64,000 nt of DNA from Arenicellales bacterium (GTDB lineage: Bacteria; Pseudomonadota; Gammaproteobacteria; Arenicellales; Poriferihabitantaceae). The notes under the pieces are model-generated. The model saw nothing but the letters and a program-made list of their open reading frames with translations. It was not told the origin of the DNA and searched no databases. The first letter of the stretch is position 1. Each line of letters begins with the position of its first letter. This document shows, piece after piece, positions 18,248-33,425 of the stretch. A program made the position numbers and the translations under genes. The stretch is from the NCBI GenBank assembly GCA_965231905.1, contig CBDDOO010000001.1:523640-587639 (forward strand). The letters run 5' to 3'.

Positions 18248-18324
18248 GCGCCCGTAGCTCAGTTGGATAGAGTACCTGGCTACGAACCAGGCGGTCGGGA
18301 GTTCGAATCTCTCCGGGCGCGCCA
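18248..18324 (+). tRNA. tRNA-Arg(ACG), 77 nt, CCA encoded
   Basis: GCGCCCG acceptor stem, D-arm AGCTCAGTTGGATAGAGT, anticodon arm CCTGG-CT-ACG-AA-CCAGG, T-loop GTTCGAA, 3' CGGGCGC-G-CCA. Confidence 0.97.
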
Positions 18325-18378: not shown

Positions 18379-18401
18379 AACCGGCTTCATCCGGGTTTTT
18401 T
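18379..18401 (+). terminator. Possible intrinsic terminator downstream of tRNA-Arg, overlapping the methyltransferase stop
   Basis: AACCGG-CTTCAT-CCGGGTT followed by a T-run; the stem is short and imperfect. Confidence 0.3.
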
Positions 18402-19256
18402 CGCGAAATACCTCTTGAGCTCGAAGCTTCCGCTGTTCCAGGCTTCGTACAGTGTTTTGAACTGGTCAATCAATGACTGGGGTGTTTTCATTCCGGAAAG
18501 TTGCAGGATTACAAGAAGATTATAAGCGTTCCTGATCAACCGCAGGTTGTCTGCGTCTTTTCCGCCGAAACCTTCGAATTGCAGGATTTCCAGACCGGCC
18601 TGACGCAATTTTTCCGATTGGGTGTCTTGACTTTCCAGGCTGTGCACAGCAAAGGGTTTATACAGCGGTACAATATATTTTTCGTATTCGCTGGCTGGCA
18701 ATCCGTCGCGGGTCATCCAGTCCGTCGCGACCAGCGCTCCGGATGGTTTGAGAATCCGGCTCACTTCATGAACAAACCGGCTCCGGTCGCCGTAGTGGCA
18801 CGCGCTTTCAATGTTGACTACCACGTCGACCGATTCGTTGGCGAAGGGCAGGCTCACGGAGCAATCCGCATATTCAAAGCCAACCCGGTCGTCGACATTG
18901 GCAGCTCTCGCTTTTTCTGCGGCGATCTCCAACTGCATCTTGTTCAGACTCACGCCGGTGACTGTGCATCCCCGGGATTTTGCAAGGTAGATAGCGGTTC
19001 CGCCTACCCCGCACCCGGCGTCTACCACATGATGGCGTCCCTGGATATTCGCTGGCGAGACGATGACTTCGGTCATTCGCTCCACGGCGCGCGCGAGCCC
19101 TGCGGAATCTGCGAGAACTTCGCCGGGTTCAGGGCATTCCCCGGGTTCGAACAGCCCGAAGTGGAGATGATCGCGGTTCCATCCGTTGAGGTAAATGCCC
19201 GGCGTATTATCGTCGTAATAGCGTTTGGTCGCGTTTGATTGGTCTGAGATGGACAT
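18387..19256 (-). CDS. Class I SAM-dependent methyltransferase (sterol/tocopherol/RebM-like subfamily); last gene of the RiPP operon
   Basis: YYD...W..DHLHFG N-terminus, VVDAGCGVGG motif I, LPFANESVDVV and IESACHY. Confidence 0.85.
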   Translation of the reverse strand: MSISDQSNATKRYYDDNTPGIYLNGWNRDHLHFGLFEPGECPEPGEVLADSAGLARAVERMTEVIVSPANIQGRHHVVDAGCGVGGTAIYLAKSRGCTVTGVSLNKMQLEIAAEKARAANVDDRVGFEYADCSVSLPFANESVDVVVNIESACHYGDRSRFVHEVSRILKPSGALVATDWMTRDGLPASEYEKYIVPLYKPFAVHSLESQDTQSEKLRQAGLEILQFEGFGGKDADNLRLIRNAYNLLVILQLSGMKTPQSLIDQFKTLYEAWNSGSFELKRYFAKKPG

Positions 19257-19288
19257 TATCGAAATTCCAGACTAAACCGTCGCGCCCA

Positions 19289-22220
19289 TCATGTCAGTTG
19301 ACGTCGGATCAGGTTCTGGAATATCCCGCCGATTTCCATTAATTCTGTAAAGTTTCCCTCCTCGACCACACGCCCCGCCTGCATCACATAAATACGGTCT
19401 GCCTGGCGCAGCGTGGAGAGGCGATGGGCAATGACGATTCTGGTTGCGTCTATGCGAGAAAGATTTTCCATGACTTCAGCCTGACTCTCATTATCCAGCC
19501 AGTTTGTCGCCTCGTCAAGCAGCAGAATCCGTGGATTATGAATGAGCGTACGAGCAATCAGGATGCGCTGGCTTTCGCCTCCCGACATGCCCCCCCCCCC
19601 CCCCCCCGGCGGCGCCCACACAGGTCAACATTTTCATCGGCATTGCGGAAATCTCCCGGTCCACGGCGGCCAGTCGGGAGGCCCGCCACGCATCCTTGCT
19701 GGTTGCGTTTTCATGACCACCGACGATGTTATCCCACACGTCTTCCGGGTGGAGTTGCACGGCCTGTGGAATGACGCCGATCTTTCGGCGCACCTGCTTG
19801 ATGTTCAGGTGTCTGAGGTCACGCCCGTCATAGTACACTGTGCCGCTTGTTGGTTCGTCAAGGCCGAGCATCAACCGGAAGAGCGTGCTTTTGCCTGCCC
19901 CGGATCCTCCGGTGATCGCGACAAACTCACCGGGACGCGCATGAATCGACAGGTCGTCGAGGATTAGTGGGCCATCCGCATCATATCGGAAATTGACGTG
20001 ATCAAGCCGGATGTCTCCGGTCAGGGTATCGACGGGGCTGCCGCCGGTACCTGTTTCCGGAGGTTCAGTGAGAAAGGGCCGAATCTGGTTGATTGCCGGC
20101 ATGATTGCGGCAACAACGCTGAACGACGCGCCGAGGCGTGTCACCGCCCCCAGAAACACCATGAACAGGGTATAGACGACGAGAAAATCTCCAACCTGGA
20201 TCGTTTCACGGCCCGGCAGCGTGGCGGCGACCAGCAAAACAGCGCCTGCAACAAGTGGTATCGCGGCGCCCAATGCCTGTAGGTGCCTCTCGATGGCGTT
20301 GTGTTCCAATTCGGCTTGTTTCTGTTCCCGGTAGCCGCGGGCCCATAGCGCGAACGCCGACCCTTCGGCGCCTTCCACACGCAATACGGAAATTCCGTTA
20401 ATGATCTGGAACAGCCGCCCCGCCAGATTCTGCATGGCCAGCGCCATCCGGCCATGGGGCGCCATCTGCCGCAGACCCAAAGCCACCGTAACGGTCAGGG
20501 AAATGAGGCCGAATACAGCCGCAACGCCGCCCAGCATCGGGCTGTAGGCGAAGGCGAGAAGGAATGCGGGCAACAGGAAGACGGTGGATAGCGTTCCATT
20601 GACAGCCACATTCTGTACGGCATCACGAAGAGCCTGGAATGTCATGCCGCGCGTGGCAAGGTCGCCAGCCGGGTAACGATGGAGAAAACGCGGCGGCAAC
20701 CGGAGGAGACGATCCTGGAACGCAGACTCTGCCCGTGATGCGGCGCGTCCTTCAAGGCGCATTAACGCCATTCCCTGAAGCACATGCATCAATGCCACGA
20801 TCAGGGCAACCACCGCCAGAGCCATGCATGCCGCGTAAAGCAGTTGAATCTCGCCAGTCGGGATCACATCATCTGCGACAAAGCCCAGTATCACGGCGGG
20901 CAGCAACATACCCAGCCCGGACAGCAGTCCTGTCACGAGAAACCACAGGAAGTCCACGGAACTCCCCTTGAAAGCCAGGCTGAACAGGTCCCGCAACCCT
21001 GCCGGACCTTGAGTTAGCGGTGGGTAAAACAACCAGGCTTCGGTACGCAGTGAGCGGGCGCGTTCTGCGGTAATCCTGGTGTGATGTCCCGCAGGAAGCG
21101 CTTCTTCGTAGCCTCTTGTCTTGTTCGGCAACAGAGCGACGGGCTGTCCATCTTTTTCCCGGAACGCCAGCATTGCACCGCCGCAATTCAGCCACCACTT
21201 CTTCCCCTGATGAAGTCGTACCCGGCGCGCGCGCACGCCGGACACATCCAGGATATGAACGAGGCGTTCGGAAAAATCAGCGGTGTCCGCCCGCTTCGGA
21301 AATGTAAAGTGGATGCCTTCATGTTGCCCTATGATTCCCAGCGCATCCTGCAGCGCCGCGTCTTCGGAGCGAGTGTCGGTCTCTTTCAAAAGACCGTAAA
21401 GATTGAACAGGTGATGGCGGGCGCCATCTTCCTCGGACCGGCGGTTGGTCACCCGCTCCCGCTCCAGGTTGATCTGGTCAACCACGGCAAGCCCTCGATT
21501 GAGTCGCTCCAGAGAAAGCGCTACATCATGGAAGCGCTTCAACGCCGGTATCAGAAGCCCTTTCCCAGCGAGCGTCCCGGAAGAGTGGACGGACAACTGC
21601 CGCGGTTCCATCAGAGTGATCCAGGTTCCGCGCATGAGTGGTATCCCGGTTTCTGCGCCTTTGCCATCAAAGCGGTTCTTTGACGGATCAAGCAGGCCCA
21701 GAAACAGACTCGCGCCTGGCGGCAGACCGGATATCCATACTACCTCGCGCCGGGTTGAGACCACGCCGGCGCCTGCCATTGGCGCCTCCCCGGCTTCAAC
21801 CAGCATATCCGTCCGTGTCGACTTCGTATCGTAGCGCGACAACATGGAAGAAATATCGGTGATCCAGGAATCCACTTGCTTTGCCAGTTCCGTATTGTCT
21901 GTCATGGTCAGGCTCGCAACAGGGACACGACGCAGCATCGTCCCCGGCAAACCTTTCGCAATCAGGCTGAGTGTCGTGGGTCCCGCGCTCGGTACAACGC
22001 CGGGCAGGAGGCGGCCGGATTCAGCGCGCAGCAAATGCTGTTGCGCCGCCTGCTCAACCTCACCCTTGCGTTCCACTATGAACAGGTCCACCGTGCCTTT
22101 TTCGACAAACCAGGCAAATTGTGAATCACTCATGTCGAGCGGCAGGTTGCCGGCGCAAGGCACAGGAGAGCCTGCCCTGGCGGCAAGGGCGGCGAGTGGA
22201 ACGGGCTCGGGAATCGTCAT
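19289..22220 (-). pseudogene. NHLP bacteriocin-export ABC transporter permease/ATPase subunit, frameshifted (+1) at a G18 run
   Basis: ORF 22220-19536 carries the TM domain and Walker A (GGSGAGKS). The signature MSGGESQR, Walker B LLLDEAT and IAHRLST are in another frame (19621-19289), and the frames switch at the homopolymer. The total span of 2932 nt is 3n+1. Confidence 0.88.
19590..19607 (-). repeat. 18-nt G homopolymer (C18 on + strand)
   Basis: Directly visible: ...CATG C18 GGCGGCGCC... Confidence 0.95.
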
Positions 22221-22224
22221 TGCG

Positions 22225-24435
22225 CTAACCAGCCTGAACCAACTGGCGATAGAGCCCGTTTCGATCCTTCATCAATTCGTCATGGGCGCCCCGCTGGACT
22301 TCCGTGCCCTTGTCGAGCACGATGATCTGGTTACAGTCCCGAACCGTGCTCAGCCGGTGCGCGACGATCAGGCAACTGATCCCCCGGCGGCGCAGTGCGT
22401 CATCAATCAATTCCTCGGTGGCTGCGTCAAGAGCGCTGGTTGCCTCATCAAGGATCAGAAATACGGGGTTGCTGGCGAGTGCGCGCGCGATTTCCAGCCG
22501 TTGCTTCTGGCCGCCACTGAAATTGCCGCCATCCTCGTTCACCCGGGTTGTGTAGCCAAGCGGCCGATTCAGGATATCGTCGTGGATACAGGCATCTTTG
22601 GCCGCGGCAACCACCGTTTCGTCGGGGACAGAAGGATTCCACAAGGTGATGTTGTCACGCACGCTTGCCGAGAAGAGACTGACATGCTGATCCACCGCCG
22701 AAATCGAACGTGACAATATCTCGCGGGGGATGCCGTGGCGCGGGTGACCGTCAAACAGGATTTCTCCGGACCAGGGCTGATGGAGACCCGACAAAAGGCG
22801 CGCCAATGTCGATTTTCCAGAGCCGCTTGGTCCGACTACAGCCACCCTCTGTCCAGGCGCTATTGTCAGGTTGAATTCCTGGATCATCGGTGGTCGGGCA
22901 CGGTTGTATCCGAAGCTCAAGTCACGCAATTCCACATGGCCGGTCAGTTTCAGTCGCCCATTGAGCGAGGAAACAGCCTCAGGGGTTGCAGGCAAGTTCT
23001 CCGGCGCCGGGGATTGCGGAGTTTTCGTGATATCTTCCAGGCGCTGCAAATCGGCCTCGATGGTCTGATGATCACTGGTAAACTCGACGAAGCGTCCGAC
23101 CGGAGCCAGGAACATACTTGCGATGATATAGAACCCGACCAGGGTACCCAGGGTCAATTCGCCAGCCATTACCTGAATTGCTCCGAAAGCCAGCGCCGCC
23201 GCATTGCCCAGAATCATGAAAAAGCCAGACAGGGAGGCATTGATGTACCCGAGTTCCGCGAAGCCCTGGCGCGCAATCAGTTCACGCGCATGATGGCCGT
23301 TCCAGCGGGAGAGAAACTGGTCGTCCGATGCGGTCATCCGTAATGTCTCGGCTTGATTCAGCATCAGGATGCCGACACCGGCCAGCAGTCCCTGCTCCCG
23401 TCGCAAGGTCAGGCTGTTGTCCCGCCGGATGCGTGTAACCGCGTATGCCAGCGCCGCATGGACCACCGCGAGGCCCAGTACGATCAGCGCCAGCATCGGC
23501 GCATGGACCAGCATGACAACCAGAAAAATCACACTCATTACGGCTTCGGTCAGCAGGCTGAAAAAATGTTCTGAAATGCCTTTGGCAACCCGGTCGATGG
23601 ACAGAACCCGGGCGGTCAGGTCACCGACAAATCGATGATTGAAGAACTCCGCCGGCAGACGCAGCATTTGTGAGACACAACGATTTCCCTCGGTCACGGA
23701 TAATCGGATCGCCAGTCGTTGCAGCCATCTTTGCCGGAGCAGGGTCAGCCCGTAGCACAGCGCGGCGGTGGCAATCAGGGCGCTGGCTATGAGCCCACCC
23801 CAGGGTTCGTCGCCCCCCAGCGTCCGGTCCACGAAAACAGCCAGCAAAGCCGGCGTTACCAGCGCCAGAGCGGCCAGCATCACGCCGCACAACAGGGTAC
23901 AGGTCAGCGCTCCCCCGGTTCCGCTGAACCAAAGCGAAATCTGTTTCAGGACGTTGGGCCGACTGCCTCCGCGTTGAAACTCCGGGCCGGGATTGAATTC
24001 CAGCGCCACCCCGGCGAAACCATATTTGAATTCTTGCGCAGAGAGTGTGCGGCGGCCTGATGAGGGATCATTGAGAAAAAAACGCTTGTGGTCAAAACCT
24101 TCCAGAATCAGAAAGTGGTTGAATTCCCAGAACAGGACGAGCGGTAACGGCATTTTCTTGAGAGTGTCTATCGAGACGTTGCGACCGACACATTCCAGTC
24201 CGTAATAGCGGGCGGCCCGCAAGAGGCCGGCGGCGCTGGAGCCATCCCGGCTGACTTCGCATCTTGTCCGCAACTCTGTGAGCGGTACCCAGCGACCAAA
24301 CCAGGCGAGTATGCTCCCAAGACATGCGGCGGCGCACTCGGTCACATGCATTTGCAATAATAGCGGTGTGGTTACGCGCTTCCGTGTGGGCTGACCCGAG
24401 GGGCCGGTAGTCTCTGTTTTTCGATCCCGAAACAT
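22225..24435 (-). CDS. NHLP-family peptidase-containing ABC transporter (C39 peptidase/permease/ATPase)
   Basis: QMHVTECAAACL (catalytic Cys), WEFNHF (His), TM domain, GPSGSGKS, FSGGQKQR and LILDEAT. Confidence 0.92.
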   Translation of the reverse strand: MFRDRKTETTGPSGQPTRKRVTTPLLLQMHVTECAAACLGSILAWFGRWVPLTELRTRCEVSRDGSSAAGLLRAARYYGLECVGRNVSIDTLKKMPLPLVLFWEFNHFLILEGFDHKRFFLNDPSSGRRTLSAQEFKYGFAGVALEFNPGPEFQRGGSRPNVLKQISLWFSGTGGALTCTLLCGVMLAALALVTPALLAVFVDRTLGGDEPWGGLIASALIATAALCYGLTLLRQRWLQRLAIRLSVTEGNRCVSQMLRLPAEFFNHRFVGDLTARVLSIDRVAKGISEHFFSLLTEAVMSVIFLVVMLVHAPMLALIVLGLAVVHAALAYAVTRIRRDNSLTLRREQGLLAGVGILMLNQAETLRMTASDDQFLSRWNGHHARELIARQGFAELGYINASLSGFFMILGNAAALAFGAIQVMAGELTLGTLVGFYIIASMFLAPVGRFVEFTSDHQTIEADLQRLEDITKTPQSPAPENLPATPEAVSSLNGRLKLTGHVELRDLSFGYNRARPPMIQEFNLTIAPGQRVAVVGPSGSGKSTLARLLSGLHQPWSGEILFDGHPRHGIPREILSRSISAVDQHVSLFSASVRDNITLWNPSVPDETVVAAAKDACIHDDILNRPLGYTTRVNEDGGNFSGGQKQRLEIARALASNPVFLILDEATSALDAATEELIDDALRRRGISCLIVAHRLSTVRDCNQIIVLDKGTEVQRGAHDELMKDRNGLYRQLVQAG

Positions 24436-25311
24436 TCATGAACGTCCGGAAGTCAGGATATCAATCGGCGCACTCTCGCCGAGTTCGATGCGAATACGGC
24501 AGGGGGCGCCATCCGGCGCGGAAAGGTCTGACGTTTGATCGAGTTCTACATCCACGCGATGTCCATACCCGGCCGGAACATGCAGTAGTGCGGCAAGCCA
24601 GAGAGGGTACGGTCCGACAGTCAGGGAAATGACCTTACCCGGTACACGGGATATTGTGCCGTCAGGCATCGTAATCCCTACATCCGTCGACATGCCGGGT
24701 TTTATATGCCTTGCCGTATCCGGGGTGACGTGCAACACCGCCCGGGGTGTCCGGGCCGCTCCGGCGCGGAGCTGGGCAATCACAGTACCCGCCGACACAT
24801 AGTCGCCGGGAGTCACGTGGAGGTTCATGACTTCGCCGCCGCTGTGGCTGACGACCAGAGACCGCGCGGCGCGGTTGGCCTCCAACTGCAGTAATGCGAC
24901 ATGGGCCGAGTCCAGAAGTGAGCGCGCGGCGGCATCCTGGCTATCAGTCTGTCGGAGTTCGTCTATGCGTCTTTGCAACACGGAGAGCTCGCGTTCCAAC
25001 TCCGGAACGGTTTGCCGGGCTATCGGCTCACCGGGTGTAATGTGGTCTCCGTGGGCAACCTGGAATTCCAGGAGGTGGCCGGGCTCCAGCGCCGTCACTT
25101 CATATCGAAGGCCCGGCCGGAGCAGGATTCCATCCAGGGTCACACTGCGGGGGATGCTGCCAAAGACACCCCATAAAATGAATGCCGCCAGAACCATGCC
25201 GACACTGGCCAGCATGATACGTTCGTGAGGAGCGGTGATCCACAACAAGTGATCCAGTTGTTTTCGTTCGCTCCTGCTGGCAGCGGTTTCAGTATGAAAT
25301 GGACTAAACAT
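24436..25311 (-). CDS. NHLP system secretion/membrane-fusion protein (HlyD-like)
   Basis: QLDHLLWIT.P..RI.L N-terminus, single TM helix, WGVFGSIP, lipoyl-like hairpin halves around a coiled coil; abuts the C39 transporter. Confidence 0.85.
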   Translation of the reverse strand: MFSPFHTETAASRSERKQLDHLLWITAPHERIMLASVGMVLAAFILWGVFGSIPRSVTLDGILLRPGLRYEVTALEPGHLLEFQVAHGDHITPGEPIARQTVPELERELSVLQRRIDELRQTDSQDAAARSLLDSAHVALLQLEANRAARSLVVSHSGGEVMNLHVTPGDYVSAGTVIAQLRAGAARTPRAVLHVTPDTARHIKPGMSTDVGITMPDGTISRVPGKVISLTVGPYPLWLAALLHVPAGYGHRVDVELDQTSDLSAPDGAPCRIRIELGESAPIDILTSGRS

Positions 25312-25314
25312 GGT

Positions 25315-26451
25315 TTATGGTCCTTCAGTTTTGTATTCACTCGACCAGGGACACATCAGGCAATAGATATAGGCTTTGACTGCATCTGCCCGATTCTCGC
25401 ACAACGAGATCTTGATGTGATGGATTCCGCGGATGAGTATCAGCGCCCCGGACCGACAGATCAGCGCTTCGGGTTTCGACGGCCACCTGGTCAACGCGGT
25501 CAGTTTCTCCGGAACAGCAAGGTCTGACTCGCGCAAGCAGTCCATGAACGTGGTCCATTGGTACGGACTGTCTATCCAGTAACGCGGATCGTTCGCGATT
25601 CTTTTTTTAGCCATGAAACTGACTCCGAGCCTTGCGCCCGGACCATCAGAGGTTATGTCAAGATGGGCCCCCAGATCGACAAAAGCGTCACGCTCTTCAA
25701 AATGCTTTATAGTCAACGATCCGATCACATCGGGTTGTCCGGGCCAACCGGCGCGCTCCAGAAACGCCAGGATGTCACCAGAATTCCGAAAGCCTGTTAC
25801 GGCAAGCCGGAGCCCTCTTATCCGTGACGGGAAGGCGCCAAAAGACTCGATTCGCGCGCCATTTTCCAGCGCCTGACATACACGCCTGACATGCCGATGT
25901 TCTTCGCGGGTCGGGTTCCATCCGACGGCTGCAAAGGTCGCATCCAGCGCGGCGGCAGCGGCCTGTTGGTCACCGCCGATGATCGGTTCAACGGGCCGCA
26001 GAAAGATTCCGGGAGCCGGACTTGTCTCATCCGGCGCCGATTCGACATCGTATTCCAACATCATCTTGTGACCAAAGATCTGACGGACGGCAGAGTCGGC
26101 GGATTTGGTCTCGTTCAGCAACCAGGTGAGTCCCGCCGCGGGGGCGGTCGCGTCCGGGGAGCGCCCCTGCCGTTCGAAGAACGCGGCAGACCGGGTTCCG
26201 CCGATTACCGAGACGCCGAAGTCTGCCTTCGCTTCGCGTTCACCCAGTGGCAATTCGAATCCGAACGGGAATGCGGCTACCGTAGAAGGGAGCTCGCGGG
26301 CGCGTTCAAGCAGTTTCGTCCATCCTTGTCCGGAAATCAGGGCAGGAGCGATATAGCTTTCGAGTTGCGAAAGCAGAGCCCCGAAAGAGTCCGCCTCACA
26401 GTCCAGTTGATCCTCGGCGGCGGCAAGCTTTTCTTCAATATCTGGCTGCAT
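25315..26451 (-). CDS. Protein of unknown function inside the RiPP operon (candidate tailoring enzyme)
   Basis: ~379-aa open frame tightly packed between ycaO and the HlyD gene; soluble-looking alpha/beta pattern; C-terminal RGIHHIKI...VKAY. No family could be assigned confidently. Confidence 0.75.
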   Translation of the reverse strand: MQPDIEEKLAAAEDQLDCEADSFGALLSQLESYIAPALISGQGWTKLLERARELPSTVAAFPFGFELPLGEREAKADFGVSVIGGTRSAAFFERQGRSPDATAPAAGLTWLLNETKSADSAVRQIFGHKMMLEYDVESAPDETSPAPGIFLRPVEPIIGGDQQAAAAALDATFAAVGWNPTREEHRHVRRVCQALENGARIESFGAFPSRIRGLRLAVTGFRNSGDILAFLERAGWPGQPDVIGSLTIKHFEERDAFVDLGAHLDITSDGPGARLGVSFMAKKRIANDPRYWIDSPYQWTTFMDCLRESDLAVPEKLTALTRWPSKPEALICRSGALILIRGIHHIKISLCENRADAVKAYIYCLMCPWSSEYKTEGP

Positions 26452-26452
26452 T

Positions 26453-28756
26453 TCACGCAATGACGGGAACCGGGTTCAGGTTTGCCTCTTCTGTGGCACA
26501 TTCTCTCAAGCCCATTTCTACCGGCACGTCGTAAAGGCGCCCCGGCGCGAAACGTTCCCAGAAGTGACGCAGGCCGGGCACAATCACACGCGCTACCGGC
26601 ATGCCGACATCGGGGCGGGTCTGGTCAAGCGCCAGAAATTCCATCCCCCTGGCTTCAATCAACGCGCGGCACCATTGTACATCCTCTTTCAGGTCTTGTG
26701 TATCCGGAACCGTATAATCCGATCTGTCGCGCATCCGGGTATCCCGCGCTGGCGCCAGATGGGGATGGTCCGCCAGTTTCCCGTTCTTCCACCACCACAG
26801 GCACATCGGATCATCAACCCCGTAGCGGGGATGGGTTTGATCCGGGTGAGGAACCCAGGTCAGGCACTGATTCATCTCGCACACGGCTCGCAAGACTGCA
26901 ATATGCGAATCAGTGTGCGCGCCCGCTCCATAGATAATGTCTTCTGTTTCGTGATCAGTTCGGCGTGACAGGGCGACAAAGGCTGGAATACCGAGATCTG
27001 AGGTCAGGTCCAGTACCCACATGTCACGATGATGTTTACTGTAATAGTCGGGAGCGGACGCCAGGTAATCGTCGCCAAAGCTTTCGAGGTTCACGCCGGG
27101 CCGATGCAATCGGTTATACCACCAGATTGCAAAGGCGTCCCGTTCAACCAATTCAAAAAATCCCTGCAAAACAGCTTCTTCCAGGGTGTTGCCGGCGGCG
27201 CAGCCATTGGAATCAGCCCAAAGCCCCGAGTTCCCGCGTTGTTCCGGGGTGGCTCCATAGAGCATGAATGTCGGCAACCAGTAATGTTGGTCTTTGGTGA
27301 GCGACCATACCGGCGACCAGTCCAGTTCTCTTTCCGGGTCGAACCGGGGCGGGACGATATTGTAAGGGTGACCGCGGGAGTTGATTTCCTGCGCATGGTC
27401 CAGTTGCCAGTCACTGAACAACTGGACATCGTTCGGGTGGATTGCCTGTCCGTTTCCGGTCACAGGAAAATCCACCAAACGCTTTCGGCGTCGAATCTCG
27501 TCGCCATGGAAGGCCCCGGAATAACGTTCAATCGCCTCGCACAGGGCGCTCACTTCGGATTGTTCCGCCGTGCTGCCCTTGCCCGCGCTCTTGCTTCGCA
27601 AACTGCGTCGCAACGAGCTCAGGCTCCTGATTCGCAATGCGAGATTGCTCCCGGCCCAGTGAACATGCAGCCAGGGGTCAGTCTCGGGAGTCGTTCTGGC
27701 AACCCATGTGACGATTCCACTCACCGGGCTGACCAGATGCCGGTATCGGGCAAGGGTCTGCGCCGGTGGCAATGCGCGTACCCCGCCACTGTTGTGAAAC
27801 CCCTTCGGACTCGGTTGTAATCGTACCGGAAGCGCCGGTCGATCCGCGTTGCGGAGCGCCGCGTCTCCACAGGCCGCGCACTGTGGCCGACGCATGACCG
27901 TATGATATTCGCTTTTCAACCGAATGACATCCAGTGAAATCACCTGTTCATGGAGCGCCGCCGCATCCTTCAGGACCAGCCACCTGGTGATCTCGACGGC
28001 CATGATTCCGTAGACAATATCCAGAACCGCGGGCTCAGCCACGTTGGGGCGAAAAGCCGCCGCCTCACCGGAATGGTTTCGCAGAAAGGAATGGATCTCC
28101 TGATGATTTCGCAAACGGTGGCAGAGACAGGCCTGGCACGGGCCTTTCTCCGCGGGCCGAAAGACCGGGCCGAAAAGGGGTTGCATTCCCCTGGGTTGAA
28201 TCAGAATCCAGGGCATACCGGAGTCAAGATGGCGCCGATTGACGGTATCATACTGTTCGTCCAGATAGTCGGCACAGACGAAGACGGACAAGGTCGGCCG
28301 CTCAGAACCGACGGCGACACCCAGGGTTTCAAGCCATCTGGCGAGGCGGCCGTCGTCACCATGAATCGCCACCTTCACCGTCCTCAACCGTTCCTCGACC
28401 CGGCGGGGGGATGCGCCTGACGAAGACCAGAATGCCGCCTTGCCCGGTTCCATCTTATAGTCGCCTGAAACGATGTATCCCCTGTCCGCCAGAGAAACCA
28501 AAGCCGCCCGCACATCGTCTTTCGGATACATTCCATCAAGAGTATGGATGATACTGTCTTGCGAGCGGCAACCATCCAGCAGTGGCAGGAGGTCTCCGTA
28601 TAGCTGTCCGTGGAGCAGTGTGTTGAACGTTTCGGAGACCAGAAGCGTCTGTCCGTCTCCGATCAGGCGGAACTCAAGGTGTGGTGTAAGAATCGGGCGT
28701 TCCGGCTGACTGCAATCGGCTGCAACAAGTGTCTTCAAACGCTCGCGCTCATCCAT
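26453..28756 (-). CDS. Fused RRE / E1-like / YcaO cyclodehydratase (TOMM C-D fusion)
   Basis: N-terminal RRE-like winged helix, GPVFRP..GPCQAC and RRPQCAAC E1-like Zn motifs, YcaO ATP motifs (SAGKG, SALCEAIERYS, DSNGCAAG, ELVERDA) and C-terminal NPVP. Confidence 0.92.
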   Translation of the reverse strand: MDERERLKTLVAADCSQPERPILTPHLEFRLIGDGQTLLVSETFNTLLHGQLYGDLLPLLDGCRSQDSIIHTLDGMYPKDDVRAALVSLADRGYIVSGDYKMEPGKAAFWSSSGASPRRVEERLRTVKVAIHGDDGRLARWLETLGVAVGSERPTLSVFVCADYLDEQYDTVNRRHLDSGMPWILIQPRGMQPLFGPVFRPAEKGPCQACLCHRLRNHQEIHSFLRNHSGEAAAFRPNVAEPAVLDIVYGIMAVEITRWLVLKDAAALHEQVISLDVIRLKSEYHTVMRRPQCAACGDAALRNADRPALPVRLQPSPKGFHNSGGVRALPPAQTLARYRHLVSPVSGIVTWVARTTPETDPWLHVHWAGSNLALRIRSLSSLRRSLRSKSAGKGSTAEQSEVSALCEAIERYSGAFHGDEIRRRKRLVDFPVTGNGQAIHPNDVQLFSDWQLDHAQEINSRGHPYNIVPPRFDPERELDWSPVWSLTKDQHYWLPTFMLYGATPEQRGNSGLWADSNGCAAGNTLEEAVLQGFFELVERDAFAIWWYNRLHRPGVNLESFGDDYLASAPDYYSKHHRDMWVLDLTSDLGIPAFVALSRRTDHETEDIIYGAGAHTDSHIAVLRAVCEMNQCLTWVPHPDQTHPRYGVDDPMCLWWWKNGKLADHPHLAPARDTRMRDRSDYTVPDTQDLKEDVQWCRALIEARGMEFLALDQTRPDVGMPVARVIVPGLRHFWERFAPGRLYDVPVEMGLRECATEEANLNPVPVIA

Positions 28757-30758
28757 TTTCCTGCGCGGTTGTGGTCTCTTTGCCTGAATCGGCGGTCAGC
28801 CGGTCATTCCGGGTAGCGTCATGGATTAGAATATCATGCCATATCTGGTCAAAACGCTGATCAATTCCGGGGGCGCCGCTGGTAAAAATGCACCGCGCCG
28901 AGGGCAGTTCACCGGTCGAAATGTACTGCGGCAGGTCGGTAAGCGCGTACACGGCATGATCTTTTTTGTCTTTGGCAAGCGGGTCGAACAACAGATTGGA
29001 GCTGGTTAATTTGCCGAGTGCGTCATAGAAACGGGAGCACAGGGTTTTGTGGTCAGCGGCCGGACTGCCTTCGTAAACGAACAGAACCTCCAGTGAAGCG
29101 CGAAGCGTGATTTCCCGGTTGACCAGGTCACCGAGGGCGATCGCGGCTATGCCGCCCTGATTCGGCTGATATTCGTCTGACTGCCAGTGACGGTCTGCGG
29201 CATCTTCGACGGCAGCTTGAAGAACCGAAGTGATGGAGGCTTCGGCGACATTGGCCAGCGCAATCCCGGCTTCGTCCGGCGACAGATTGCCGCGCAATGC
29301 GTGCATACTGATCTGGAACACTTTGCCGTTTGACCAGTTGCGCACGGTCTCGGCGGCGTCCATGGCGTCCTGTACCGGAATTTCGGCGATCTGCTCTTTC
29401 ATTTTTGCAACGTCGAATTCGTGCGTCCAGTAGACACGCGCCAGGCCGCGGCGGGCCAGCATTTCAAATTCCGGGTCTGCGACTCCATCCGGAATCCGGA
29501 GATTGGTAAATTCCGGGTCTTTCAGGTTGTCCAGCAGTTCCGGATTCTGTTCGATGGCGCTGACGAGATGAGGCGCCGCGTCGTAAATTTCGACGATTGC
29601 ATCGAACGCTTCCGGGCGCGCTTCCGAAACCGGGCTGTCGTAAGCGCTCCAGTCCTTGATTCCCGGATAGAAGCGCTCGCGCCATTGATCAACCAGTGGG
29701 TCCATCGTCTCAAACCAGCGCTTTGGGCGCAGAGCCAGAGCGAACATGGCGCCGTAGCTTCCCGGTAGTTGAGGCGATTCATCCGCTCCGTGATGTTGCA
29801 GCAACGGGTAGCGTCGGCCGGCCGAGACATGGTGGTCGGGATGACGCTGCATATTGAAAAACATCCAGTTGCTGAACTTGTAATCGGCGCTCCACGAATG
29901 CCGGAGTTGGGCCCTTTCAAACCGGCCATTGGGCAGATGGACCCGGCGCAGGCCGTAATGCTGGAGGTAGTTGCTGATTTTCATCGAGAGGACGATTCCG
30001 AGACACAGGGTCATGAAGATCAGGACCGACCACCACCCGCCTGTCCAGTAGACGAACGTGTACCAGGCAGCGGTTTCAGCGCCGTAGAGCCAGAAAGGAT
30101 TGCTGAAGCGCCAGATTGGCAGTTGACGATTCGCCATCCGTTTACGGGACACCTCCCAGGCGCCGAGAAAATTGCTGGCCAGTTCACGGGGGAAATACCG
30201 CCAGAAGCTCTGTCCCTTAGGCGCCGAGCCGACATCTTTGGGGGTGCCGACCCAGACGTGGTGAATATGAAAATGCTCTGTAGCATAGTGCGGATACGAA
30301 ACGGAGGAGAGCAGGAAGACGCCAATGTGCCGCTCCCATGCCGCGCGTCGATGGATCAGTTCGTGCCCGACAATAAATACCCCCTGGCCTTCCACCGCCA
30401 GCGCAATAGCCAGCAGGGCGCCTTCCCAGACGGCCAGATGTCCAACGATGAAAATTTGCCAGAGTGTGAATACGAATGTGACTGGCCAGAGTAACGCCCA
30501 TAACCAGACAGGCAGGTTATACCAGATCAGGCGGCGTTCGGGTGTTGTTTTCGGGTCCGCGTTACGCCCGTCGGCGCCGAATGCAAGGTCCAGCGGACCT
30601 ACGCTCCAGAAAAAGATGAACGGGCCCGCGATCCACCAGCCACCGTATATTGCGGCAGCGAAAATCAGTGGGAAGACCGCAATGGGTAAAAAATGCGGGA
30701 GCGCGTTCCGTAGCGACAGCGAAATCATTCTATCCGTTGAAATTGTTGCTGCAACCAT
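28749..30758 (-). CDS. AlkB/fatty-acid-desaturase-family membrane diiron enzyme fused to a degenerate GlnE-like nucleotidyltransferase domain
   Basis: His boxes HELIH, EHFHIHH, NYLQHYGL and QRHPDHH with TM helices. The C-terminal ~290 aa follow the GlnE pattern (APHLVSAIEQNPELLDNL; IALGDLVNREITLRASLEVLFVY versus canonical GKLGGRELxYxSDLDLxFxY). Confidence 0.75.
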   Translation of the reverse strand: MVAATISTDRMISLSLRNALPHFLPIAVFPLIFAAAIYGGWWIAGPFIFFWSVGPLDLAFGADGRNADPKTTPERRLIWYNLPVWLWALLWPVTFVFTLWQIFIVGHLAVWEGALLAIALAVEGQGVFIVGHELIHRRAAWERHIGVFLLSSVSYPHYATEHFHIHHVWVGTPKDVGSAPKGQSFWRYFPRELASNFLGAWEVSRKRMANRQLPIWRFSNPFWLYGAETAAWYTFVYWTGGWWSVLIFMTLCLGIVLSMKISNYLQHYGLRRVHLPNGRFERAQLRHSWSADYKFSNWMFFNMQRHPDHHVSAGRRYPLLQHHGADESPQLPGSYGAMFALALRPKRWFETMDPLVDQWRERFYPGIKDWSAYDSPVSEARPEAFDAIVEIYDAAPHLVSAIEQNPELLDNLKDPEFTNLRIPDGVADPEFEMLARRGLARVYWTHEFDVAKMKEQIAEIPVQDAMDAAETVRNWSNGKVFQISMHALRGNLSPDEAGIALANVAEASITSVLQAAVEDAADRHWQSDEYQPNQGGIAAIALGDLVNREITLRASLEVLFVYEGSPAADHKTLCSRFYDALGKLTSSNLLFDPLAKDKKDHAVYALTDLPQYISTGELPSARCIFTSGAPGIDQRFDQIWHDILIHDATRNDRLTADSGKETTTAQENG

Positions 30759-30796
30759 AATCAGATTCTCTTCGTATCACCAAAAGGCAGGCTAGA

Positions 30797-33085
30797 TTAT
30801 CCATCATGGTCCCGCCCCCTGGCAACCGTAGCGCCCAACCGGTCAACAGCGATCAGCAGGGGGGGAAGGAGCAGGAAATCAAAGACCAGAGCGAATCCGA
30901 TGATCAACGCAGTGAGCAGACCGACCTGGGCTGTAGGGATAAACGGGGAGAACAGCAAGATCAGAAATCCCGCCACCAGTACGACTGTGGTCGTAAAGAC
31001 CGCCCGCCCGACGGTCTGAAAAGCCCGGGACACGGCTTGTTCGGGGGTATGGCCGAATTCACGCCGCGCACGCTGGTATTTGCTGATGAAATGTACCGTG
31101 TCGTCTACCACGATCCCGAGCGTCATGGCTATGACTACAGACAACGAAGCCCCGATTTCTCCTACCGTCAACCCCCAGACACCGAACCCGACCACGGCGG
31201 GGACAAAATTGGGCGCCAGACTCACGAGGCCCATACGGAACGACCGGAAAGCCGCCAGAAGAACAACGGAAATGCCGAAGAGTATGACCACGGTTCCGAG
31301 CAACATCGACTTTATGCTGCGCTGGCCTATGTGCGCGAACAGCAGCGCAGGTCCCGAGCCATCGGCCCGGACAATGTATGTCGTGTTGTTGCCCAGCCAT
31401 TCCTCCGCGCGCCGGTTCAGCGTCAGCACATCCTTTGAAGAGAGGGTTCCGGCGGTCACGGTCATACGGGTGGACGACTTGTCGATACTGATCTGGTTGT
31501 TCAGATTCAGGCCGAAGGGAAGCGAGAGTTCGTAAAGCAACAGATATTGTGACGCGAGATCATGGCTTTCGGGGAGCCGGTAAGCATTCGGGTCATCTCC
31601 GTGCATACTCTTGTTGATCTGCCGGAATGTGTCGGTAATGACCGCGACATGTCGTACTTCAGGCTGCATTCGATACCATCCGGCAAAGGCGGACACGTCT
31701 TCCAGAAACGCGGGGTCGGCTATGCTCCCTTGCGAAACAAGGGAGTATTCAAGCGTGGTATTCCCGCCCAGGCGTTGATCCAGAAAATCGATATCCTGTC
31801 GAAATTCGGTGCTTTCATCAAAAAAGTGCACCAGAACATCGTTTAATTCGTTACGCGGAATGACTGCCGCAAACGCGAATACGACGACCATTGAGCCGAA
31901 CAGCAGGGCCTTCCGGTATCGTATGACGCACTCCGCGATCATGCCCATCAGCGGGTCGCGGTCCTGCACGGTTGCCGGTACGCGCATTGGCAGCAGCGAG
32001 AGCAGCGCTGGCAGGAATGTGACTGAAAGGATGAACGAAGCCACGATACCGAATGCAACGAAGGAGCCGAGATGGCGGTGTGGAGGCGCCTCCGCAAAAT
32101 TCAGCGCAAGAAAACCGAGTGTCGTGGTCAGGCTGGCAAGAAAGACCGGAAACAGGTTGACCCGGATGGATTCCCTGATTGCCGTATGCTTCGAATCTCC
32201 GGCCTGCAGACGTTGTTGCAGGGTAACCAGCAGGTGTACGCTATTGGCTACAACAATCATCAGCACGATCGTGGGAGCCGGCGCCACAGGTGGAGAAAAC
32301 GGCAGCCCGGCCCAACCGCCCAGCCCCAGCGATACGACGACAGATAAAATCATGACGAACCCGGTTCCCAGCACACCCGCCAGCTTTCGGATCAGAACTA
32401 CAAGGACCAGCGCCATGACTGCCAGGCTTGCCGGCAGGAATATCTTTTGACTGGTTATGGCCGCTTCCGCAAAAACGTGGTTGATCATCACCGTCCCGCT
32501 TACACGAAGATCAATGCCGGGGAACCTGTTTTCCGTCTCGGTGGCGAGACCGCGCGCAAATTCCGCAATCCCTGAAATCGTAATCGTCTCGTCTTCTTCC
32601 GGCAAAGCCACGGTAACCAGGACAGCGCTGACTCCGCCATCGCTGGCCAGTAGTCTTCCGGCAAGCCTGGGATCAGCCAGGGCGGTCGCGCGTATCTGTA
32701 AACGTTCCCGCTCACTGTCCAGGGTCGCCGGATCCACAAGGTTGCGGACGATCAGATCGTCGCCGTTCGCAATCGTATGCTGGAAGTTTGTGATGGAGTC
32801 AACCCGCGTCGAATATGGAGTCTGCCATGCCTGTTCGGTGAGCCACACCGTGGCCATCAGAGCTTGTTCGGACAGGGCGTCGCCATTGTCCGGGGCGATC
32901 ACGAAAAGCACACTGTCACTCTTGCCGTAGGCGCTTTCGAGAGATTCCAGCGCCAGGAGTTGGGGATTATCCTGATCGAAGAAAATGCGGTAATTCGTGG
33001 AAAGTGTAAGGAACCGGGCGCCAGAAGCCGCCACCCCAACCGCGATCAGGGCGCCGACAATGACAAGCCAGCGACTGGCAACCAC
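30797..33085 (-). CDS. MMPL/RND-family transporter (start may lie upstream at a non-standard codon)
   Basis: Two MMPL repeats with large periplasmic loops; PVFLASLTTTLGF and LGIVVDDTVHF motifs. The frame stays open upstream of GTG 33085 (LIDKAGNNIRSFEFRFAEWVV). Confidence 0.88.
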   Translation of the reverse strand: MVASRWLVIVGALIAVGVAASGARFLTLSTNYRIFFDQDNPQLLALESLESAYGKSDSVLFVIAPDNGDALSEQALMATVWLTEQAWQTPYSTRVDSITNFQHTIANGDDLIVRNLVDPATLDSERERLQIRATALADPRLAGRLLASDGGVSAVLVTVALPEEDETITISGIAEFARGLATETENRFPGIDLRVSGTVMINHVFAEAAITSQKIFLPASLAVMALVLVVLIRKLAGVLGTGFVMILSVVVSLGLGGWAGLPFSPPVAPAPTIVLMIVVANSVHLLVTLQQRLQAGDSKHTAIRESIRVNLFPVFLASLTTTLGFLALNFAEAPPHRHLGSFVAFGIVASFILSVTFLPALLSLLPMRVPATVQDRDPLMGMIAECVIRYRKALLFGSMVVVFAFAAVIPRNELNDVLVHFFDESTEFRQDIDFLDQRLGGNTTLEYSLVSQGSIADPAFLEDVSAFAGWYRMQPEVRHVAVITDTFRQINKSMHGDDPNAYRLPESHDLASQYLLLYELSLPFGLNLNNQISIDKSSTRMTVTAGTLSSKDVLTLNRRAEEWLGNNTTYIVRADGSGPALLFAHIGQRSIKSMLLGTVVILFGISVVLLAAFRSFRMGLVSLAPNFVPAVVGFGVWGLTVGEIGASLSVVIAMTLGIVVDDTVHFISKYQRARREFGHTPEQAVSRAFQTVGRAVFTTTVVLVAGFLILLFSPFIPTAQVGLLTALIIGFALVFDFLLLPPLLIAVDRLGATVARGRDHDG

Positions 33086-33167
33086 CCACTCCGCGAATCG
33101 GAATTCAAAGGAGCGGATGTTATTGCCGGCCTTGTCTATCAGTGTACAGAGGGCGGTATCGCCGCGC

Positions 33168-33425
33168 TCAGAGGCCGCAACAGCAAAGGCCGGCGGAGAT
33201 TGCTTCGAGTTGTTCCTCAGTCAGCTCGGTACTGGGTGGCAACGAAAGATGTAAGTTTTGCAGATCACTATCATGTACCTGTATCTGTATGCTGTCAGGA
33301 ATCTCGATACCGAATTCCTGATGGATGATGTTTTTGGGGTCTGCAATCAATTGTCTGCGAAATTCAGCGTCTTGTACTGATTTCTCGACCAGCTGTGATT
33401 GTATCTCTTGTGCGAATGCGACCAT
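33168..33425 (-). CDS. NHLP-leader RiPP precursor peptide; predicted core LCCCGL
   Basis: AGGAG 8 nt before ATG 33425. The nitrile-hydratase-like leader (EKSVQDAEFRRQLIADPK..I..EFGIEIPD.I.I.V...L.L.LP) ends in a double-glycine-type motif ELTEEQLEAISAG, followed by only LCCCGL-stop. Confidence 0.9.
   Translation of the reverse strand: MVAFAQEIQSQLVEKSVQDAEFRRQLIADPKNIIHQEFGIEIPDSIQIQVHDSDLQNLHLSLPPSTELTEEQLEAISAGLCCCGL

Follow-up and report, generated by a model that had tools for sequence, protein, structure and literature searches.

We describe an operon in a 64,000-nucleotide (nt) stretch of DNA, hereafter the window, from an Arenicellales bacterium (assembly GCA_965231905.1, contig CBDDOO010000001.1, positions 523,640 to 587,639 of the forward strand). 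The operon occupies positions 18387-33425 of the window and comprises nine co-oriented genes on the minus strand, as an initial annotation of this DNA had stated and as the open reading frame (ORF) listing and the translations confirm. In order, they encode an NHLP-type precursor, an MMPL transporter, an AlkB-GlnE fusion, a protein combining a recognition element (RRE) with E1-like and YcaO domains, a 381-aa protein, an HlyD protein, a C39-peptidase ATP-binding cassette (ABC) transporter, a second ABC protein (ABC2) and a class I methyltransferase. No gap between neighbouring genes exceeds 82 nt, and several of the genes abut or overlap. The host genome is 2.9 Mb in size, 97% complete, assembled in two contigs and has a GC content of 54%. 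Judged from its sequence, the nine-gene operon is an srp-family cluster, and therefore not a new class of peptide made by the ribosome and then modified after translation (RiPP). The srp clusters of marine-sponge microbiomes were reportedly defined by Nguyen et al. (J Am Chem Soc 2021, 143:10221), and the abstract of that paper is said to rank them with the biosynthetic loci that sponges of high microbial abundance share most widely, and to call their product cryptic.

The precursor gene (33168-33425, minus strand) encodes an SrpE-like NHLP precursor of the proteusin type. Its 85-aa product matches TIGR03793 with 71.9 bits against a cut-off of 50.9, and PF02979 with 34 bits against 27.2. Residues 1-79 form a leader ending in LTEEQLEAISAG (the longer leader end being PPSTELTEEQLEAISAG), followed by a core of only six residues, so that the C-terminus reads LEAISAG-LCCCGL-stop; the core codons lie at 33171-33188, directly before the stop codon. 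The hallmarks of an NHLP system are present, namely the L(X)4L motif, the double-Gly-type boundary and a C39-peptidase ABC transporter (PCAT) with PF03412 at 22225-24435. Over 73 aa, the precursor has 67% identity with the leader and core published for SrpE (leader sequence from the supplement of PMC10286304), and the two share the identical stretch LTEEQLEAISAGLCCC, which takes in the L(X)4L motif, the boundary and core residues one to four. The initial annotation proposed the operon as a candidate new RiPP system, an idea that a close characterised cluster with the same gene set would refute; with this identity, and with the core gene set that the LCCCW loci have in common with the window, the srp clusters largely supply one. 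In the srp system, LahT150 cleavage frees LCCCW from SrpE (PMC10286304 supplement), which supports the predicted cut after Ala-Gly in the window precursor, and SrpI brominates the terminal Trp of LCCCW (PMC10286304, PMC10858898).

A scan of the 2.9-Mb host genome found no other xCCC precursor, so the gene is present in a single copy. Species-representative prokaryote genomes were scanned more broadly, giving 410 matching loci, the best 80 of which were surveyed. Six-frame mining of the surveyed loci recovered xCCC(x0-2) cores from about 75 independent loci, every one preceded by EEQLE[A/V/T][I/V][S/A]AG. The core is LCCCW in about 30 loci, [L/W/M]CCCG[I/V/L/F/N/Q/T/G] in about 25, RCCC-stop in nine and LCCC-stop in three, with LCCCL, LCCCT, LCCCF and RCCCCA in a few. 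The comparison of homologous cores that the initial annotation recommended thus shows a conserved, short xCCC core. Since cores of 4-6 residues are common to these loci, a truncated precursor copy is excluded, and the description of the operon as an NHLP/YcaO RiPP system whose leader delivers a tiny tri-Cys core holds, on the TIGR03793 match, the YcaO models and the core survey together.

The modifying enzyme of this core is encoded at 26453-28756 (minus strand) as a 767-aa, SrpC-like cyclodehydratase with a winged-helix RRE, an E1-like domain and a YcaO domain (PF02624, TIGR03604, TIGR03882, PF21084). It scores 317 bits with PF02624, 264.2 bits with the SagD-type model TIGR03604 (cut-off 219.25) and 134.4 bits with the leader-binding model TIGR03882 (cut-off 36.9). 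The enzyme is 61-65% identical to the YcaO proteins of LCCCW loci, and a genome scan shows it to be the sole YcaO of the host; a search of the same genome found no SagB-type azoline dehydrogenase. SrpC turns all three Cys of LCCCW into thiazolines (PMC10858898, PMC10286304). By homology to SrpC, the cysteines of LCCCGL would likewise be converted to three contiguous thiazolines, an outcome that the initial annotation had anticipated and that the published activity of the homologue now supports.

The gene at 28749-30758 (minus strand) encodes a 669-aa fusion of an AlkB-type membrane diiron oxygenase with a GlnE-like domain, recognised by the FA_desaturase and GlnE models and by PDB 8f6t. The AlkB part spans residues ~34-357 and matches PDB 8f6t with an E-value of 5.9e-51 at 28-29% identity; the AlphaFold2 (AF2) model has a pLDDT of 83, and Foldseek matches it to AlkB at TMt 0.70-0.73. 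The motifs HExxH, EHxxxHH, NYxxHYG and RHxxHH are all found, NYxQHYG is invariant in the family, and the nine histidine ligands H132, H136, H162, H166, H167, H267, H306, H309 and H310 are invariant in alignments of 54 and 29 family sequences. Identity to the counterparts in LCCCW loci is 52-62%. We considered an acyl-lipid desaturase and rejected it in favour of an AlkB-type hydroxylase, given the 8f6t match and the AlkB fold. AlkB enzymes act on hydrophobic alkanes, with rubredoxin as the canonical electron donor. The C-terminal domain is GlnE-like in fold (3k7d, 1v4a), with a degenerate motif that reads LGDLVNRE...ASLEV in the window and has lost the D-x-D; an active GlnE adenylyltransferase was rejected for this reason.

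The 381-aa protein (378-381 aa), here called prenyltransferase-like (PT-like), is encoded at 25315-26460 (minus strand). AF2 and Foldseek predict an ABBA (PT-barrel) fold: the model, with a pLDDT of 91.7 and a pTM of 0.90, consists of repeated alpha-beta-beta-alpha units, and the top 50 Foldseek matches in the PDB are all ABBA prenyltransferases. They include EpzP, AmbP1/3, NphB/Orf2, FamD1, TleC, PriB, DMATS enzymes, the RiPP enzyme LimF and FunA, with probabilities of 0.97-1.00 and E-values of 3e-6 to 1e-3. The residues R210, R215, R341, H344, K347, K359 and Y361 are invariant and lie in strand regions, as candidates for a barrel lining that would bind diphosphate. There are more than 369 homologues, none of them named, and a profile search places 1568 representatives at 50% identity in the family. 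The PT-like protein is the universal signature gene of the xCCC family. Its assignment as a prenyltransferase derives from the predicted fold, from which we infer prenyl transfer.

The same genome holds a second NHLP locus (L084, C1:634000-652000) about 83 kb past the cluster and outside the window. Its precursor ends in ...ASGG-FAPGGDSW, with the leader end LSDQELRDASGG before FAPGGDSW, and its genes encode a C39-ABC protein, an ABC2, a 314-aa unknown protein, a CMAS-like methyltransferase, a PT-like paralogue (29% identical to the window protein), GTP cyclohydrolase I and an S-adenosylmethionine (SAM) carboxyl methyltransferase (PF03492); neither YcaO nor AlkB is found at the locus. The presence of a PT-like paralogue and two methyltransferases at a locus without YcaO suggests a general role of the PT-like family in tailoring short cores delivered by NHLP leaders.

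The methyltransferase gene (18387-19256, minus strand) encodes a class I SAM enzyme of 289 aa, placed in the CMAS/RebM/TleD-like group by Pfam and NCBIfam models and by solved relatives. Among the latter is 5gm1, labelled an 'O-methyltransferase' in the PDB, which we take to be the prenyl-olefin methyltransferase TleD. Identity to the methyltransferases of other family loci is 55-79%. Within the cluster the gene looks like a mobile accessory, because relative L005 lacks it at the tRNA-Arg junction, and in relative L004 the MMPL and AlkB genes flank a different methyltransferase of 33% identity.

Four transport proteins complete the operon, all on the minus strand. The PCAT (736 aa; 22225-24435) carries PF03412, scores 840.6 bits with TIGR03796, just under the cut-off of 853.3, and shows the EC...ACL and NHF motifs in its translation; it is predicted to act as both leader protease and exporter, cutting after Ala-Gly. 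Upstream lies the gene of a short HlyD-type membrane-fusion protein for NHLP export (291 aa; 24436-25311), which matches HlyD_3 and reaches 98.6 bits with TIGR03794, below cut-off. ABC2 (19289-22220) is a second NHLP-system ABC permease/ATPase that covers model positions 2-588 of 686 in TIGR03797. The MMPL/HAE3-type RND transporter (762 aa; 30797-33085; PF03176) contains a sterol-sensing-like domain and is likely an exporter or flippase of a hydrophobic product.

The junctions are tight throughout. From the precursor stop to the MMPL start there are 82 nt, and from MMPL to the AlkB-like gene 38 nt; the AlkB-like and YcaO genes overlap by 8 nt, and the YcaO gene either overlaps the 381-aa ORF by 8 nt (TTG start) or leaves a 1-nt gap (ATG start at 26451). 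A further 3 nt separate that ORF from HlyD, HlyD and the C39-ABC gene abut, 4 nt lie between the C39-ABC and ABC2 genes, and 32 nt between the true ABC2 stop (19289) and the methyltransferase start (19256). Downstream, the cluster is bounded by a tRNA-Arg(ACG) gene (18248-18324, plus strand) between the methyltransferase and class V aminotransferase genes; on the other flank lie the genes of a P-II protein and a DAO-type oxidase. In the nearest relatives, the same flanks surround the orthologous cluster. Just upstream of the cluster flank, at 35357-37105 (plus strand), lies a 582-aa ORF whose translation resembles a fusion of homocysteine S-methyltransferase with a class I methyltransferase.

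The distribution of the family places this operon among its relatives. The best 80 of the 410 loci come nearly all from metagenome-assembled genomes (MAGs) of sponge symbionts and span at least 10 phyla. Three contexts were fetched, from a Poriferihabitaceae MAG, an alphaproteobacterial MAG and a Nitrospinota sponge MAG; all three contain a nitrile hydratase-like precursor, the desaturase-GlnE fusion, YcaO (a 266-aa fragment in the alphaproteobacterial context) and C39-ABC, two of the three have MMPL, and the precursors end in SAG-LCCCGF, SAG-LCCCGI and SAG-LCCCW. ORF BLAST and clustering covered 81 loci, with antisense ORFs (e.g. 'c22', the antisense of the precursor gene) filtered by overlap. 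The universal core of the family is the xCCC(x0-2) precursor, the AlkB-GlnE fusion, YcaO, the PT-like protein and two ABC proteins.

Around this core, the accessory genes follow the type of peptide, where Gx stands for a CCCGx core, W for LCCCW and end for a core stopping at CCC. A Trp halogenase (PF04820) is found in 14/27 W loci and in both loci of mixed Gx+W type, and in 0/23 Gx and 0/11 end loci. A LolA-like protein occurs in 10/27 W loci, in both mixed loci and in 1/23 Gx loci (end 0/11), and a fusion of an NHLP leader with a squalene-hopene-cyclase-like (SHC-like) domain in 17/27 W loci and 1/23 Gx loci (end 0/11). MMPL marks the other subtypes, with 20/23 Gx and 10/11 end loci against 5/27 W loci; the window-type methyltransferase is distributed similarly (18/23, 9/11 and 1/27), and a FAD_binding_4 oxidase is present in 7/23 Gx loci and in no W (0/27) or end (0/11) locus. 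The maximum-likelihood tree of the PT-like protein unites every LCCCW locus in a single derived clade (support 100/100, stem 0.67) nested among CCCGx lineages, and the other deep group contains the CCC-end and other core types. The window groups (100/99) with two Arenicellales/Poriferihabitaceae loci, both CCCGx. Neither a Trp halogenase (PF04820) nor an SrpI-type brominase was found in the 97%-complete genome. The window cluster is thus of the halogenase-free CCCGx subtype carrying MMPL and a methyltransferase, and the published LCCCW/brominase form, as the tree places it, is one derived branch of a larger xCCC family. Within Arenicellales the family is patchy, being found in 4/61 genomes and missing from a genome of the same genus.

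Several loci have a composition of their own. The SHC-like fusion of the LCCCW loci, almost nowhere else present, is a protein of about 435 aa with an NHLP leader-like N-terminus (PF02979) joined to a squalene-hopene-cyclase/prenyltransferase-repeat-like domain (e.g. L003:3859-5160, L047:3862-5160 and L065:3869-5182); an enzyme-fused 'leader' is unusual. The RCCC-stop loci L031, L034, L038, L042, L053, L054, L077 and L081 encode two divergent PT-like paralogues that fall in separate clades, and RCCC loci often carry an amine oxidase, a metallo-beta-lactamase-fold protein and a PSP1-domain protein. Two alphaproteobacterial sponge MAGs (L025 and L028) have two family clusters adjoining, one with a WCCCG[Q/N] core, MMPL and methyltransferase, and the other with LCCCW, Trp halogenase and the LolA-like gene.

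Taken together, we read the operon as a functional srp-family cluster of the CCCGx subtype, horizontally spread among sponge symbionts and giving a lipidated, methylated tris-thiazoline hexapeptide, and give this reading a probability of roughly 55%. In the pathway we propose, the precursor would be bound at its L(X)4L motif through the RRE of the fused E1-like/YcaO enzyme, by homology to published work, and the YcaO domain would cyclodehydrate the three contiguous Cys of LCCCGL to thiazolines as SrpC does. Homology also suggests that the C39-ABC protein would cut after ...SAG, with export through ABC2 and HlyD. The later steps are proposed from fold and context. The PT-barrel protein may transfer an isoprenoid onto the short core, most likely at its free N-terminal amine or at another of its nucleophiles. 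The AlkB-type enzyme could then oxidise a hydrophobic intermediate, acting as a hydroxylase on an alkyl or prenyl terminus or as a dehydrogenase on thiazolines, the methyltransferase may cap the C-terminal carboxylate or methylate the prenyl olefin, and MMPL might insert the lipophilic product into the envelope or take it across. The lipophilic product put forward in the initial annotation has gained strength, because the 381-aa protein has a predicted ABBA prenyltransferase fold and the 'desaturase' is an AlkB-type hydroxylase; lipidation itself we infer. The family survey carries the same hydrophobic theme in the MMPL genes of the Gx and CCC-end loci and the LolA-like genes of the W loci.

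A number of observations weigh against this reading. The PT-like protein has no match in Pfam or NCBIfam, its family profile finds nothing among PDB sequences at E <= 10, and the template-modelling (TM) scores of its fold matches, at 0.40-0.56, are only moderate. The CCC-end cores RCCC and LCCC contain no aromatic residue to accept a prenyl group. Rubredoxin (PF00301) is absent from the whole genome and the domain fused to AlkB is not a redox domain; across the family, this GlnE-like domain has its first catalytic Asp replaced and keeps only the second D/E. The lack of rubredoxin contrasts with the intact diiron site of the AlkB-type enzyme. More than one site of methylation is conceivable, since the solved structures nearest to the methyltransferase belong to enzymes that methylate O, N or C of small molecules, including the prenyl-olefin methyltransferases TleD, BezA and the GPP/FPP C-methyltransferases. 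Additionally, SrpC was poorly active in E. coli and gave partly modified mixtures (PMC10286304).

A rival reading of the same srp-family cluster has a product that is not lipidated. Here the PT-barrel protein would be a non-catalytic scaffold, a peptide binder or another kind of enzyme, the AlkB-like protein would stand in for the missing FMN dehydrogenase and oxidise thiazolines to thiazoles, and a plain (methylated) tris-thiazol(in)e hexapeptide would leave through the PCAT. The missing SagB-type dehydrogenase, in a family where a desaturase-type enzyme is universal, fits such a role for AlkB, as do the lack of sequence similarity between the PT-like protein and known prenyltransferases and the lack of a classical aromatic acceptor in RCCC and LCCC. 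However, the fold matches are exclusively ABBA prenyltransferases at a probability of about 1, the oxygenase has its closest solved relatives among the alkane 1-monooxygenases, lipid-handling MMPL or LolA-like genes co-occur with the cluster, and a PT-like paralogue sits in L084, where there is neither YcaO nor AlkB to serve. We regard a non-lipidated product as unlikely.

Instead of a secreted compound resembling an antibiotic, the product could also be a membrane-associated metal-binding or redox factor, with the tri-Cys or thiazoline unit chelating Cu, Zn or Fe or acting as a thiol buffer at the envelope, MMPL placing it in the outer leaflet, and a role in symbiont physiology within the sponge. 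The extreme conservation of CCC amid varying flanking residues agrees with this, and the occurrence in sponge symbionts of at least 10 phyla, often in several copies, suggests a function tied to the habitat; the genes for envelope lipid trafficking (MMPL, LolA-like) would suit it as well. Against it, the Pfam and NCBIfam scans reveal no metal-handling gene among the operon proteins, and the Cys are consumed into thiazolines in published work (PMC10858898). This explanation, to which we give a low probability, concerns the biological role and is compatible with the chemistry of the preferred reading, the lipidated tris-thiazoline peptide.

That reading also calls for a functional cluster, and here the eighth gene has to be considered. 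ABC2 is present as annotated, yet it is not a single intact ORF in the assembly: a run of 18 G (19590-19607, minus strand; C18 on the plus strand) splits it by a frameshift, so that an 894-aa ORF (19536-22220) is followed, in another frame, by a tail of 110 aa (19289-19621). The ABC signature MSGGESQR and the Walker B motif ILLLDEAT lie past the run in that other frame. The length of the tract is unstable, with G17 and G20 in frame and G18 out of frame. We read tract lengths from contigs of other public runs that carry exactly the same locus. Run X1, probably the source sample, has G18 as in the window; X2 has G20, and X3 (depth 277, from the same sample as X1) and X4 (depth 353) have G17, so that three of the four runs X1-X4 are in frame, and X8 shows mixed lengths, with a unitig break at the tract and a minor -1 form. 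Orthologues read LGAGGDVT (8 residues) where the G17 form would read VGAAGGGGGGM (11 residues), and the tract exceeds their equivalent sequence by 9-12 G. It is therefore a real expansion whose length is unstable or poorly measured; because the contigs of other runs carry in-frame lengths, it is no fixed inactivation, and for the same reason a pseudogene cluster was largely rejected. The remaining eight genes are intact, and family-invariant residues are kept in both genes checked, the AlkB-GlnE fusion and the PT-like protein. No identifiable transcriptome was found among the public runs searched for RNA; those holding the locus have even depth across the cluster and its flanks, and this uniformity indicates that they are DNA-like. 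The genome holds nine G/C homopolymers of 12-24 nt, including the ABC2 tract and those at C1:286320, 510430, 644204, 704614 and 910813 and C2:774972, 885880 and 888064. Such tracts could serve as contingency loci, or they could be an artefact that sequencing or assembly introduces systematically. A decaying or phase-OFF copy, in which the G18 frameshift removes the ABC2 signature, Walker B and H-loop and no export takes place, would accord with the out-of-frame G18 of the window and X1, with the lengthened tract and with the patchy distribution in the order, but the in-frame tracts of X2, X3 and X4 (X3 sharing its sample with X1), the mixed lengths of X8, the intact state of the other genes and the error-prone sequencing of homopolymers make it very improbable.

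The preferred reading, a lipidated and methylated tris-thiazoline hexapeptide, can be extended to the whole srp superfamily (LCCCW, CCCGx and CCC-end), though only tentatively and with more doubt than conviction. The superfamily would then make lipidated poly-thiazoline micro-peptides of a kind not seen before: the orphan ABBA prenyltransferase (about 1,500 clusters at 50% identity) would prenylate the core of 4-6 residues, the AlkB-type enzyme, lacking rubredoxin and fused to a dead GlnE domain, would tailor the lipid or the rings, and MMPL or LolA-type proteins would install the product in the envelope. If true, a ribosomal route would converge on the tris-thiazoline lipids of the non-ribosomal peptide synthetase type, e.g. 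thiangazole/tantazole-like scaffolds. Independently of this extension, the invariant partners of YcaO are an AlkB-type oxygenase and a protein of predicted PT fold that databases leave unannotated, the latter flagging a large sequence-orphan enzyme family, and the non-brominated subtypes trade the halogenase for MMPL and a methyltransferase. A prenylated, oxidised and methylated tris-thiazoline peptide is a concrete hypothesis, open to testing, for the chemistry still missing from the family; for heterologous expression, the near-complete genome (2.9 Mb, two contigs) offers a clean template.

Among known systems, a literature search for the combination of YcaO, NHLP, desaturase and MMPL gave no match. 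The papers examined, the defining 2021 paper not among them, describe no mature product of any family member and contain no earlier report of the PT fold, the AlkB assignment or the subtype map.

The closest functional analogues are the linear cyanobactins (aeruginosamides, viridisamide; AgeMTPT-type capping), which are N-prenylated, C-methyl-esterified, thiazole-containing tri- to pentapeptides. Like the product proposed here, they are very short linear YcaO thiazol(in)e peptides whose termini are capped by an ABBA-fold prenyltransferase and a SAM methyltransferase. Unlike them, the nine products of the window include no PatA/PatG subtilisin-type protease or PatE-like precursor domain, the leader is of the NHLP type and would be cut by a PCAT, the AlkB-like and MMPL proteins have no known cyanobactin counterpart, and the cyanobactin prenyltransferase family shows no similarity in sequence to the PT-like protein. 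None of the defining features would class the window cluster with the cyanobactins, and the resemblance is mechanistic only.

The oxygenase compares with the AlkB alkane 1-monooxygenases (PDB 8f6t, 8sbb) in its transmembrane diiron fold, nine His ligands and NYxQHYG motif, and differs from them in being fused to a GlnE-like domain rather than to rubredoxin and in sitting in a RiPP operon. With the NHLP/TOMM systems (Haft, Basu and Mitchell 2010, PMC2887384) and the mpr cluster (MprC/MprD), the operon shares the TIGR03793 precursor family, a cyclodehydratase fused to a docking domain and the HlyD/PCAT/ABC2 export triad (TIGR03794/96/97). Typical NHLP/TOMM cores are much longer and variable, those associated with LanM averaging 26 residues (PMC2887384), whereas the core of the window family is a fixed xCCC of 4-6 residues; furthermore, the window has no FMN dehydrogenase and adds the AlkB-like, PT-fold, MMPL and methyltransferase genes.

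The srp system stands nearest, its gene set having been taken empirically from LCCCW loci and not from a published gene list. Beyond the leader identity, the same LTEEQLEAISAG boundary and a core starting with LCCC, the window and srp have in common a YcaO fused to RRE and E1-like domains, the lack of an azoline dehydrogenase and sponge-symbiont hosts. The LCCCW loci also share the AlkB-GlnE fusion, the C39-ABC protein, ABC2 and the PT-like protein, the last at 41-44% identity. In contrast to srp, the window core ends in Gly-Leu rather than Trp, its genome has no SrpI-type Trp brominase, and its cluster has no NHLP-leader/SHC-like fusion, LolA-like gene or 409-aa unknown gene. In their place the window carries the MMPL transporter and the class I methyltransferase, and it stands in a CCCGx clade apart from that of LCCCW.

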